A stretch of DNA of 64,000 bases from Escherichia coli (GTDB taxonomy: Bacteria; Pseudomonadota; Gammaproteobacteria; Enterobacterales; Enterobacteriaceae): NCBI RefSeq assembly GCF_046105845.1, contig NZ_CP151004.1; one strand, written 5' to 3'. A program made the translations under genes and the position numbers. Under the pieces are notes generated by a model. It searched no databases and was not told where the DNA came from. It worked only from the letters and a program-made list of their open reading frames with translations. This document shows, piece after piece, positions 26,708-32,342 of the stretch (the first letter of the stretch is position 1; each line of letters opens with the position of its first letter).

Positions 26708-28030
26708 TTATTCGCTGATACGGCGATAGACAGTTGGTGTGCTTTCCGGTGCTTTATCGGCAAGTTTAATTGCCGCTTTCACCGCTTTAGCCGCTTCCTG
26801 CCAGCTGTTTTCGTCTTTCGCGTGGATAACCGCCAGCGGACGCTGACCGTCTACCTGGTCGCCCAGACGCGCCATATCAGTAAAGCCGACGCTGTAATCG
26901 ATGGTGTCAGATGCCTGACGGCGTCCGCCGCCCATTGCAACCACTGCCATCCCCAGCGCACGGGTATCCATTTCACTGACAAAACCTTCGGTATCAGCAT
27001 AGACTGCTTTCGTCAGCATCGCTGTCGGCAGATACTTCGCGTAGTTCTCAACGAAGTCGGTTGGGCCTTTTTGTGCCGCTACCATACGACCAAAGACTTC
27101 TGCCGCTTTACCGTTGTCCAGCACCGCCTGCAATTTCGCGCGTGCTTCGGCGTCATCTTTCGCCAGCTTGCCGGAGATCAGCATCTCCACGCACAGCGCC
27201 ATCGTGACATCAAACAGACGCGGGTTACGATATTCTCCCGTCAGGAACTGCACTGCTTCACGAACCTCAACCGCGTTACCTGCACTGGAGGCCAGTACCT
27301 GATTCATATCGGTGAGCAGCGCGGTGGTGCGCACGCCCGCGCCGTTAGCTACGCCAACAATCGCTTCGGCAAGGGCTTCAGAGAGTTCGTAGGTCGGCAT
27401 AAACGCGCCGCTACCCACTTTCACGTCCATCACCAGCGCGTCCAGACCTTCCGCAAGTTTCTTCGCCAGAATAGAGGCGGTGATCAGCGGGATGGAGTCC
27501 ACGGTTGCGGTAATATCGCGGGTCGCGTAGAAACGTTTATCCGCCGGAGCCAGTGAGCTGGTCTGGCCGATAATTGCCACGCCGACGTCTTTAATAATTT
27601 CGCGGAAACGGTTGTCATCCGGGAAAATGTCGAAGCCAGGGATGGATTCCAGTTTGTCGAGCGTACCGCCAGTATGACCGAGGCCGCGACCGGAGATCAT
27701 CGGAATATAGCCGCCGCAGGCTGCGACCATCGGCCCCAACATCAGCGAAGTCACATCGCCGACGCCGCCGGTCGAGTGTTTATCAACAATCGGGCCATTC
27801 AGATGCAGGCTTTTCCAGTCGAGAACGGTTCCTGAATCTCGCATCGCCATGGTCAGCGAGACACGCTCAGGCATTGTCATATCGTGGAAGAAAATGGTCA
27901 TCGCGAGGGCGGCAATCTGCCCTTCGGAGATAGTGTTGTCGCGAATACCGTTGATAAAGAAACGAATTTCTTCATCGCTCAGCGCATGACCATCACGTTT
28001 TTTACGAATAATTTCTTGTGCGAGAAACAA
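26708..28030 (-). CDS. deoA: Thymidine phosphorylase DeoA (440 aa, TTG start)
   Basis: ORF track 26708..28099; start codon TTG giving (M)[20 protein letters not shown]. Confidence 0.9.
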
Positions 28031-28107
28031 GGTAACCTCCCGTGGAAAAGAGACGAGGTAATCGGGGAACCGGATGAGCATCGCTGCGTCATCCGGCAAA
28101 TCAAGCC

Positions 28108-28887
28108 TTAGTAGCTGCTGGCGCTCTTACCGTCGCCGTGGCCCAGCGCTTTCAGCAGGCTTGCCAGCAGGCTGGAAGCACCAAAGCGGTAGTGACGCGC
28201 ATCAGCCCAGTCAGCACCGAACAGTTCATCTGCGATGGCGAGATATTTCTGCGCATCTTCCGCAGTACGCACGCCGCCCGCCGGTTTGAAACCAACGGTT
28301 TTTTCTACGCCCATATCACGGATCACTTCCATCATGATGCGCGCGCTTTCCGGCGTCGCGTTCACAGCCACTTTACCGGTAGAGGTTTTGATGAAGTCCG
28401 CACCCGCTTTGATGGAGATTTCAGACGCTTTACGGATCAGCGCTTCGTCTTTTAGTTCGCCGGTTTCGATGATCACTTTCAGCAGTACATTCGCTGCCGC
28501 GCAAGCCTCTTTACAGGCTTTCACCAGGTCAAAACCAACCTGCTCGTTACCCGCCATCAGCGCGCGGTACGGGAACACAACGTCAACTTCATCAGCACCG
28601 TAGGCGATTGCCGCACGGGTTTCTGCCAGCGCGATTTCGATGTCGTCGTTACCGTGTGGGAAGTTGGTTACCGTAGCGATACGGATTTCCGGGGTACCCT
28701 GCTCTTTCAGCGTTTTGCGAGCAATTGGGATAAAGCGAGGATAGATACAGATAGCGGCGGTATTGCCGACCGGAGTTTTGGCCTGATGACACAGAGCAAT
28801 TACTTTCTCGTCGGTGTCGTCGTCATTCAGGGTGGTCAGGTCCATCAATTTCAGTGCACGCAGGCTGCTTGCTTTCAGATCAGTCAT
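28108..28887 (-). CDS. deoC: Deoxyribose-phosphate aldolase DeoC (259 aa)
   Basis: ORF track 28108..28911; start at [29 protein letters not shown]. Confidence 0.95.
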
Positions 28888-28931
28888 TTCATTCTCCTGG
28901 CTTGTCGCCAATAAAATTCACCTTGCGAGTT

Positions 28932-28947
28932 TGTTAGTATTCTAACA
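28932..28947. promoter_or_regulatory. DeoR operator-like palindrome TGTTAGTATTCTAACA, 45 bp upstream of deoC (promoter-proximal site)
   Basis: 15 of 16 palindromic positions; matches the TGTTAGAA-TTCTAACA operator type as I recall it. Confidence 0.6.
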
Positions 28948-29144
28948 TCTACTCCGCAACACACTTCGATATACATCACAATTAAGGAAATCTACTTACA
29001 AGTTTGCATCACTGTAATGCGATCTGGTTCAAATAATTCACTTTCAAATGAATGCGTCAGTGGTGGCAAACGCATCAGGATCAAAGTGAACATCACGAAA
29101 CTTCTTACAATGGCGCATCACCTTCGGCATAAAAGGAAAAGAAG

Positions 29145-30695
29145 ATGCCCACTTCTCATGAAAATGCACTGCAACAACGTTGCCAGCAAATTGTCACCAG
29201 CCCAGTGCTTAGCCCGGAGCAGAAGCGCCATTTTCTGGCACTGGAAGCAGAAAACAATCTGCCTTACCCACAGCTTCCTGCCGAAGCCCGCCGCGCGCTG
29301 GATGAAGGTGTAATCTGCGATATGTTTGAAGGTCATGCGCCGTACAAACCGCGCTATGTCTTACCCGATTACGCCCGTTTTCTGGCGAACGGTTCCGAAT
29401 GGCTGGAGCTGGAAGGCGCGAAAGATCTTGATGATGCACTCTCTCTGCTGACCATTCTTTACCACCACGTACCGTCGGTCACATCGATGCCGGTCTACCT
29501 GGGGCAACTGGATGCGTTGTTGCAACCGTATGTTAGAATTCTAACACAAGACGAGATCGATATTCGAATAAAACGTTTCTGGCGTTACCTCGACAGAACC
29601 CTGCCAGACGCCTTTATGCACGCCAATATCGGCCCGTCTGATTCGCCCATCACCCGTGCAATCTTACGTGCAGATGCAGAGCTGAAGCAGGTTTCACCGA
29701 ACCTGACCTTTATCTACGATCCTGAAATCACCCCTGATGACCTGCTGCTGGAAGTGGCGAAGAACATCTGTGAATGTAGCAAACCGCACATCGCCAACGG
29801 TCCGGTGCATGATAAAATTTTCACAAAAGGGGGCTACGGGATTGTGAGCTGTTACAACTCACTGCCGCTGGCGGGTGGTGGCAGCACGCTGGTACGCCTT
29901 AACCTGAAAGCCATTGCCGAGCGCAGCGAATCGCTGGATGACTTCTTTACGCGCACTCTACCGCACTACTGCCAGCAGCAGATCGCCATCATCGATGCGC
30001 GGTGTGAATTCCTCTATCAACAATCACACTTCTTTGAGAATAGCTTCCTGGTGAAAGAAGGGCTGATTAACCCTGAACGTTTTGTGCCAATGTTTGGCAT
30101 GTATGGGCTGGCGGAAGCAGTTAACTTACTGTGTGAGAAAGAAGGGATTGCCGCGCGCTACGGTAAAGAAGCCGCCGCAAATGAAGTGGGTTATCGCATC
30201 AGCGCGCAACTGGCGGAGTTTGTCGCCAATACCCCCGTGAAATATGGCTGGCAAAAACGCGCCATGTTACACGCACAGTCGGGGATCAGTTCCGATATCG
30301 GCACCACGCCGGGCGCGCGTTTGCCGTATGGCGATGAGCCAGATCCGATCACCCATCTGCAAACTGTCGCCCCGCATCATGCTTATTATTATTCCGGCAT
30401 CAGCGACATTCTGACGCTCGACGAAACCATCAAACGTAATCCGCAGGCGCTGGTACAGCTTTGCCTCGGTGCCTTTAAAGCCGGAATGCGTGAATTTACC
30501 GCCAATGTCAGCGGTAACGATCTGGTTCGCGTTACTGGTTATATGGTGCGTTTGTCGGATCTGGAAAAATATCGTGCCGAAGGCTCACGTACCAACACCA
30601 CCTGGCTGGGCGAAGAGGCCGCACGTAACACTCGTATTCTGGAACGCCAGCCGCGCGTGATAAGCCATGAACAGCAGATGCGCTTTAGTCAGTAA
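29145..30695 (+). CDS. yjjI: Glycine-radical-enzyme-like protein YjjI (516 aa)
   Basis: ORF track; divergent from deoC, followed by its activase-like partner. Confidence 0.85.
29531..29546. promoter_or_regulatory. DeoR operator-like perfect palindrome TGTTAGAATTCTAACA, 599 bp from the proximal site and inside the predicted yjjI ORF
   Basis: Perfect 16-bp palindrome; centre-to-centre spacing 599 bp matches the deoP1-deoP2 operator spacing I recall. Confidence 0.6.
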
Positions 30696-31530
30696 GATTA
30701 TCCCCTTCTCCTGCGTTGACGGGCCAGGCAGTCGTCTGGCTCTGTTTTTGCAGGGCTGCAATCTGCGCTGCAAAAACTGTCACAATCCGTGGACGATGGG
30801 ACGTTGCAATGATTGCGGGGAGTGCGTGCCACAGTGTCCGCATCAGGCGTTGCAGATTGTTGACGGCAAAGTGGTGTGGAACGCTGTGGTCTGCGAGCAG
30901 TGTGATACCTGCCTGAAGAGGTGTCCGCAACATGCCACGCCAATGGCGCAATCCATGAGCGTGGATGAGGTGCTTAGCCATATCCACAAAGCGGTGCTGT
31001 TTATCGAAGGGATAACGGTAAGCGGCGGCGAAGCCACGACCCAACTGCCGTTTGTAGTGGCGCTGTTTACTGCTATCAAAAACGATCCGCAATTGTGCCA
31101 TCTCACCTGTCTGGTGGACAGTAATGGCATGTTGAGCGAAACCGGCTGGGAAAAATTACTCCCGGTGTGCGACGGCGCAATGCTCGATCTCAAAGCGTGG
31201 GGTAGCGAATGTCATCAACAGTTAACCGGACGCGATAATCAGCAGATTAAGCGCAGCATCTGTTTGCTGGCAGAGCGCGGTAAGCTGGCGGAACTGCGTT
31301 TGCTGGTAATCCCTGGCCAGGTGGATTATTTGCAACACATCGAAGAACTGGCGGCGTTTATCAAGGGAGTCGGCGATGTTCCGGTACGCCTGAACGCGTT
31401 TCATGCCCACGGCGTGTATGGCGAGGCGCAAAGCTGGGCGAGCGCCACGCCGGAGGATGTGGAACAACTGGCTGATGCGTTACGGGAGCGCGGGGTGAGT
31501 CGGTTAATATTTCCGGCGCTATATTTGTGA
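30667..31530 (+). CDS. yjjW: Radical SAM glycyl-radical-enzyme activase-like protein YjjW (287 aa)
   Basis: ORF track; CxxxCxxC cluster CKNCHNPW plus ferredoxin-like cysteine motifs. Confidence 0.85.
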
Positions 31531-31559
31531 CATGCCGGATGTGGCCTACGAAGGGCAAA

Positions 31560-32342
31560 CTACCCACGCATGTTAAACACCTCATTCGTATTATTAAGCA
31601 ACACTTCGGCAATCTCATCCGCGGGTTCCGGACGCAACTCGCAAAGCACGTCAAACACCCGCGCAGCCTGTTCCGGGCGGTTAGGCTGCCCCTGAAAGCC
31701 GTTGAGCGGCATATCCGGCGCGTCGGTTTCCAGCAACAACGATGCCAGCGGTAATTTTGCGATGACATCGCGGGTTTTACTGGCGCGTGGATAGGTGATA
31801 GTACCGCCTACGCCGATTTTGTAGCCCAGCAGTACAAACCGTTCGGCCTGTTGCAGGCTGCCGGAAAAACCGTGAACCACGCCAGTGCGCGATAAATCGT
31901 GGCGTTTAAGATGCATCGCCAGTTTGTCGTGTGTGCGCCGTGAATGCAGGATCACCGGCAGATCGTAGCGTTTCGCCAGTTTCAGTTGTTCGTCGAGTAA
32001 CCACTGCTGCCTCTCAAATTGCGGAGCTTCGCCGAAGAGATCCAGACCGATCTCCCCCACCGCCACCACCTTCGCCGGACGCCTTTCCAGCGCCTGCTGT
32101 AGCTGATCAAGAGACACATCGCTATGTTTTTCCAACATACCAGGATGCAAGCCCAATGCGGCATACAGCGGTTGATATTTTTCCGCTAACGCCTGCACGC
32201 GGGCAAAATTTTCCGCCTCGGTTGCCGGAACAATGATCTTGCCTACGCCCGCTTGTGCCGCGCGTTGCAGGCTGGCCTCTTCATCGCCACTAAACGGCGG
32301 GAAATCAAAATGGCAGTGGGTGTCGATAAAACGGCAAATCAA
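31560..32342 (-). CDS. yjjV: TatD-family metal-dependent hydrolase YjjV (260 aa)
   Basis: ORF track; MICRFIDTHCHFDF TatD signature. Confidence 0.85.
   Translation of the reverse strand: MICRFIDTHCHFDFPPFSGDEEASLQRAAQAGVGKIIVPATEAENFARVQALAEKYQPLYAALGLHPGMLEKHSDVSLDQLQQALERRPAKVVAVGEIGLDLFGEAPQFERQQWLLDEQLKLAKRYDLPVILHSRRTHDKLAMHLKRHDLSRTGVVHGFSGSLQQAERFVLLGYKIGVGGTITYPRASKTRDVIAKLPLASLLLETDAPDMPLNGFQGQPNRPEQAARVFDVLCELRPEPADEIAEVLLNNTNEVFNMRG

Follow-up and report, generated by a model that had tools for sequence, protein, structure and literature searches.

Repression of the Escherichia coli deo promoters by DeoR is relieved by deoxyribose-5-phosphate. DeoR binds two operators, O1 and O2, which lie ~600 bp apart at tandem promoters (PMC8053113). 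These promoters, deoP1 and deoP2, are both repressed by DeoR and have been described as '599 bp apart' and locked together by looping (PMC3334521). Loops among all deo operator sites were observed by electron microscopy, and O1-O2 looping was measured in vivo, with an estimate of ~72% at the natural spacing (PMC8053113). The DeoR looping work of Dandanell, Valentin-Hansen, Hammer and Amouyal dates from 1985-1989 (summarised in PMC8053113 and PMC3334521), and the deo operators are a founding example of bacterial long-range repression by DNA looping. At deoP2, tandem CRP sites flank the CytR operator (PMC3454398). The whole operon is expressed from one deoCABD promoter that is situated 'in an upstream gene, yjjI' (PMC6389913).

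We compared this system with a locus in a 64-kb stretch of DNA from another E. coli genome (hereafter the window, to which all positions refer unless stated otherwise), in which a first-pass annotation made from the sequence alone had noticed two deo operator palindromes. We are highly confident that the locus is the control region of E. coli deoCABD, the operon for nucleoside and deoxynucleoside catabolism, with the DeoR operators O1, O2 and OE and with operator sequence embedded in the codons of yjjI.

The deoC-yjjI-yjjW locus and its DeoR operators

The region 28108-31530 comprises three genes:

28108-28887, minus strand: deoC, deoxyribose-phosphate aldolase (TIGR00126, E = 3e-88; annotated as such by RefSeq at the corresponding E. 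coli locus)
29145-30695, plus strand: yjjI, YjjI family glycyl radical enzyme of 516 aa (TIGR04040, 788 bits; K-12 b4380)
30667-31530, downstream of yjjI: yjjW, the activase gene (TIGR04041, E = 3e-119)

The first gene of deoCABD, deoC, starts with an ATG at 28887 on the minus strand. Divergent from it is yjjI, which houses O1, the deoP1 promoter and OE. Of 5426 complete E. coli genomes, 5423 contain a match to a 2.6-kb stretch of the locus, with identities of 95-99% or higher; deoC, yjjI and yjjW are annotated in all matching E. coli genomes, with deoA, deoB and deoD after deoC. Between 28850 and 29900 only a few bases distinguish the window from K-12 MG1655, and none of these falls within the sites discussed here. 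Downstream of these genes, the gap between yjjW and yjjV measures ~30 bp in the window (31531-31559) and in strain Res13-Lact-PER13-34, compared with ~420 bp in K-12 MG1655 (4614261-4614679), so either K-12 has extra DNA there or the lineage of the window has lost DNA.

For the 16-bp DeoR operator consensus we used TGTTAGAATTCTAACA, which is also the sequence of the perfect O1 site. The operators are:

28932-28947, minus strand: deoO2, the proximal DeoR operator, TGTTAGTATTCTAACA (deo strand TGTTAGAATACTAACA), one mismatch to a perfect palindrome
29531-29546, minus strand: deoO1, the distal DeoR operator, the perfect palindrome TGTTAGAATTCTAACA with 0 mismatches
29810-29825, minus strand: deoOE, the third (upstream) DeoR operator, TGATAAAATTTTCACA (deo strand TGTGAAAATTTTATCA), 4 mismatches to the consensus

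A near-perfect palindrome had been claimed 45 bp upstream of deoC; it is present as O2, but the gap to the deoC ATG is 44 bp. The perfect palindrome said to lie within the yjjI codons for PYVRILTQ was found there as O1, which reads TAT GTT AGA ATT CTA ACA in the yjjI frame (Y129-V130-R131-I132-L133-T134, codons 129-134) and includes the rare codons AGA and CTA, each used only twice in yjjI. From start to start, O2 and O1 are 599 bp apart, the very figure given in PMC3334521, and the proposed fit to classical DeoR looping holds. In 64 kb of the same composition ~0.0005 sites with at most one mismatch are expected by chance, while two were observed; shuffled sequences contained a mean of 0.16 sites at up to three mismatches. 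Sequence, position and context upstream of deoC support the identification of the two palindromes as the textbook DeoR operators O2 and O1 of deoCABD.

Besides O1 and O2, OE is the single further site with up to four mismatches across the 64-kb window, where ~1.8 such sites are expected by chance; we identified it as an operator because of its position and conservation, not its score. It starts 279 bp beyond O1 (29531 to 29810), in agreement with the OE described ~300 bp further upstream of O1 (PMC8053113). This operator was absent from the first-pass list. It too lies inside yjjI, at codons 222-227, where it reads (CA)T GAT AAA ATT TTC ACA and shares the codon phase of O1.

Promoter elements of deoP1 and deoP2

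The following elements accompany the operators:

28939-28947, minus strand: extended -10-like element of deoP2, TGT TAGAAT, in the left half of O2 (motif read from the sequence, putative promoter assignment in line with the literature)
29538-29546, minus strand: extended -10-like element of deoP1, TGT TAGAAT, in the left half of O1 on the deo strand
28965-28980, minus strand: the proximal of two deoP2 CRP sites, deo-strand sequence TGTGATGTATATCGAA, 2 mismatches from the core motif
29018-29033, minus strand: the distal of two deoP2 CRP sites, deo-strand sequence TTTGAACCAGATCGCA, likewise 2 mismatches from the core motif
29547-29582, minus strand: conserved block upstream of the deoP1 -10, containing the A/T-rich AAACGTTTTATTCGAATA and spanning roughly -16 to -51 for a start at ~29531; yjjI codons 135-146
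28888-29531, minus strand: predicted leader of the deoP1 transcript (from O1/P1 geometry and PMC6389913)

In the left half of both O1 and O2 stands TGTTAGAAT, an extended -10-like motif, which at deoP2 lies ~40 bp downstream of the midpoint of the proximal CRP site. This fits the classical picture of the deo promoters, in which the operators lie over the -10 regions. DeoR at O1 and O2 would occlude RNA polymerase at deoP1 and deoP2, with an operator half doubling as a -10-like element. A simple -35/-10 consensus scan called neither P1 nor P2, as expected for promoters that both lack a good -35 hexamer and depend instead on an extended -10-like motif (P1) or CRP (P2). The two CRP sites of deoP2 are 53 bp apart, and the sequence under the yjjI/deoC CRP ChIP-seq peak of ETEC H10407 is identical to the 28965-28980 site (PMC4287617). 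In the mechanism established in the literature, the multimeric repressor DeoR binds O2, O1 and the weaker OE, and DNA looping shuts both tandem promoters together; deoP2 is also subject to activation by CRP and repression by CytR.

A sigma-70 table entry at 4614642-4614709 (U00096.2), attributed to deoC and placed 704 bp from it (PMC6389913), converts to 29524-29591 of the window and covers O1 as well as the conserved block upstream of it. This region and the statement in the same paper that a promoter lies in yjjI bear out the first-pass claim that the distal deo promoter and operator are embedded in this gene. The block at 29547-29582 would represent the -35/UP region of deoP1. It follows from the O1/P1 geometry and from the published whole-operon expression that the deoP1 transcript would start at ~29531 on the minus strand, cross the first 129 codons of yjjI and its promoter region in antisense orientation, and continue through deoP2 into deoC. 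The supplements of PMC3415461 hold no start-site entries for deoC or yjjI.

Two further ChIP signals fall in this region. An FNR peak assigned to yjjI (U00096.2 4,615,181; PMC3688515) corresponds to ~29052 in the deoC-yjjI spacer, within the O1-O2 loop, so that the anaerobic yjjI promoter would be enclosed by the DeoR loop. A search of the spacer for FNR sites returned candidates with 2-3 mismatches only; the closest sequences near the peak, with 3 mismatches each, are TTGATCCTGATGCG (29071-29084) and TTGAACCAGATCGC (29019-29032), the latter overlapping the distal CRP site. In ETEC H10407 a second CRP ChIP-seq peak was mapped inside yjjI, 544 bp from the deoP2 CRP peak (PMC4287617), which converts to ~29516, ~22 bp from the centre of O1. 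The CRP site predicted for this intragenic peak (CGTACCGTCGGTCACA, 29468-29483) is unconstrained at synonymous positions, and O1 itself is just 2 mismatches away from the CRP core. The intragenic peak could be caused by direct binding at O1 or by cross-linking via the DeoR loop.

Conservation of the operators within yjjI

Scanning one genome per species, we found 80 yjjI loci. In 74 of them, each from a distinct species, deoC is divergent from yjjI and adjoins it (Escherichia, Salmonella, Citrobacter, Enterobacter, Lelliottia, Kosakonia, Kluyvera, Atlantibacter, Hafnia, Edwardsiella and others); two further loci were cut off before deoC, and four were from Proteus. In all 74 deoC-adjacent loci and in the two that were cut off, O1 had 0-2 mismatches and its position in yjjI was exactly +386. 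In the 74 loci OE was located at +665, at a constant 279 bp from O1, and its sequence was identical in 62. An O2-like site in the deoC-yjjI spacer had at most 3 mismatches in most of the 74 species and 4-5 in the rest. The O1-O2 spacing was most often 601 bp and varied between 567 and 675 bp; 599 bp is specific to Escherichia and a few others, so this value is not a conserved geometric requirement. Such variable spacing fits the distance tolerance of DeoR looping, for which repression is detectable at ~5 kb (PMC8053113). In four loci from Hafnia and Edwardsiella (L073, L074, L076 and L078) the spacer is ~460-475 bp long, compared with ~260 bp, and the best O2-like site, with 4-5 mismatches, lies 184-218 bp from deoC; O1 and OE are kept. 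Hafnia and Edwardsiella seem to have a different arrangement of the proximal promoter.

We then calculated a per-codon profile of synonymous diversity along yjjI from 77 sequences (gene mean 0.44). Its troughs include:

yjjI codons 222-228: OE, mean diversity 0.004, the deepest trough
yjjI codons 129-134: O1, mean diversity 0.02, the second deepest trough
yjjI codons 135-146: block just upstream of the P1 -10, diversity ~0.13-0.20 in 8-codon windows
yjjI codons 507-516: overlap with the yjjW start, diversity ~0.13-0.16 in 8-codon windows

None of 100,000 random codon sets was as low as O1 or OE, a count that is not a strict probability since the sequences are phylogenetically related. In the second-tier trough at 29547-29582, the codons CGA ATA AAA CGT TTC TGG are nearly invariant. 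The trough at codons 507-516 coincides with the overlap of yjjI and yjjW (30667-30695); the yjjW start lies 29 bp ahead of the yjjI stop, in a different frame. An additional trough was seen at 30030-30047 (codons 296-301), where TTC TTT GAG AAT AGC TTC is near-invariant in deoC-adjacent Enterobacteriaceae and variable in Proteus. We considered a fourth DeoR site there and rejected it, as a hand alignment gave 8 of 16 matches to the consensus.

The four Proteus species have no deoC in the 4 kb upstream of yjjI and no operator. In these species, synonymous sites vary freely in the codons homologous to O1 (Y-V-G-E/N/S-L-T) and OE (D-A-V-F-G). Judged from the aligned coding sequences, selection on O1, the P1 block and OE has frozen synonymous positions in yjjI and fixed the rare codons AGA and CTA. 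The operators have probably fixed amino acids as well in the lineages that carry them, namely I132 and D223-K224-I225-T227; residues 131-132, 224, 225 and 227 differ in the homologues of Proteus, Providencia and Moellerella.

The same conservation could in principle stem from constraint on the YjjI protein or from an RNA hairpin, formed either by the yjjI mRNA or by the deo leader, in which case the likeness to operators would be functionless. The palindrome is partly compatible with protein constraint, as Y129, V130, L133, T134 and F226 are conserved family-wide, including in Proteus, and O1 could form a 6-bp hairpin (-5.4 kcal/mol, z = -2.1). However, protein constraint does not freeze synonymous sites, and GTT, ATT, CTA and ACA are essentially invariant in the 77 sequences, while 4-6 codons each are in use at the flanking L126 and P128. 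Proteus keeps the residues and varies the codons, and O1 uses the rare AGA and CTA. OE is equally frozen yet free of a hairpin (z = -0.44, not better than shuffled sequences), and O2, which lies outside any gene, has the same motif. The hairpin, weak at O1 and absent at OE, was rejected, and an Rfam scan of 28000-31600 at E ≤ 1 found no RNA family. Taken as a whole, this explanation appears very improbable compared with selection on DeoR operators.

It could also be argued that yjjI is misannotated, with a true start downstream of O1 or no gene at all, and that the operators occupy a long non-coding region. Shorter YjjI entries do exist in databases, some of 402 aa starting at M115 (29487) and others of 391 aa. 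However, the M115 start is still upstream of O1, and OE (codons 222-227) is inside yjjI under any proposed start. YjjI is annotated at 516 aa in K-12 (b4380) and RefSeq, with its start 257 bp from deoC, and a Shine-Dalgarno-like AAGGA precedes the ATG at 29145. The protein gives a full-length match to the YjjI glycine radical enzyme family (TIGR04040/PF11230) above the curated cut-off, with residues 11-504 aligned to profile positions 1-497 of 497 (788 bits, cut-off 498). It carries the glycyl-radical motif RVTGY at residues 462-466, and the activase gene yjjW adjoins. Residues 11-128, which precede O1, are 78% identical to Proteus mirabilis, compared with 70.6% for the rest of the protein; across Proteus, Edwardsiella and Hafnia their identity is 78-81% with normal synonymous variation, which together indicate a translated sequence. 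This conservation, of residues 11-114 in particular, argues that the 402-aa and 391-aa annotations are truncated calls. The first-pass annotation had named a yjjI start downstream of 29546 as evidence against its reading; the annotation, the TIGR04040 match from residue 11 and the Proteus identity place the start upstream of that position. O1 and OE lie inside genuine yjjI coding sequence, and we find the misannotation scarcely credible. We likewise give almost no weight to the palindromes being a chance pair or a relic without present function, such as a duplicated fragment: nothing speaks for it beyond the shortness of the motif (16 bp), but the chance expectation is ~0.0005 sites at up to one mismatch, the positions are conserved in 74 species and the published looping and repression experiments concern exactly these operators (PMC8053113).

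Possible DeoR control of yjjI and comparison with known systems

The position of O1 (+386) and OE (+665) raises the question of DeoR control over yjjI itself, which would then be a hidden member of the DeoR regulon. We regard this as a tentative and rather unlikely idea. Three routes could lead to such control: the O1-O2 and OE-O2 loops would enclose the FNR-dependent yjjI promoter, bound DeoR would act as a roadblock to yjjI elongation, or convergent transcription from deoP1, running antisense through codons 1-129 and the yjjI promoter region before it reaches deoC, would interfere with yjjI transcription. If true, an anaerobic glycyl-radical enzyme would be under DeoR, and the regulatory overlap would lock the yjjI-deoC synteny across Enterobacteriaceae. 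It would also hint at a functional link of YjjI/YjjW with deoxyribose or nucleoside metabolism.

Finding the deo operators brings no new biology; the K-12 annotation already implies a distal promoter within yjjI, and PMC6389913 states it. The added value is modest and comparative: what is new here is the evidence that the operators constrain the YjjI sequence, with operators and P1 promoter leaving the two deepest synonymous troughs of the gene. Rare codons, and probably amino acids, have been fixed in this way in a glycyl radical enzyme. As a teaching example, the locus shows cleanly how regulatory and coding information can overlap.

The operators described here are already known, as this is the same system as in E. 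coli K-12. All three sites are identical to those of K-12 deoCABD, with the same 599-bp spacing, OE 279 bp beyond O1, the position upstream of deoC and the tandem CRP sites; we found no difference, and the window simply shows this element as it occurs in a different E. coli genome. In lac O2, which lies in lacZ, and in the internal operators of galS and deoR (PMC3334521), an auxiliary or looping operator within an open reading frame likewise cooperates with a promoter-proximal operator. In contrast to these cases, the open reading frame that hosts the deo operators belongs to a different, divergent gene, in which a complete promoter and two operators are embedded and from which transcription would proceed antisense. 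Finally, the locus resembles dual-use codons, a general phenomenon rather than a family, in that 6-18 codons are synonymously frozen, rare codons are fixed and a DNA site appears to shape amino acids. Among such cases deo/yjjI is unusually clean, with Proteus as a natural control without operators.
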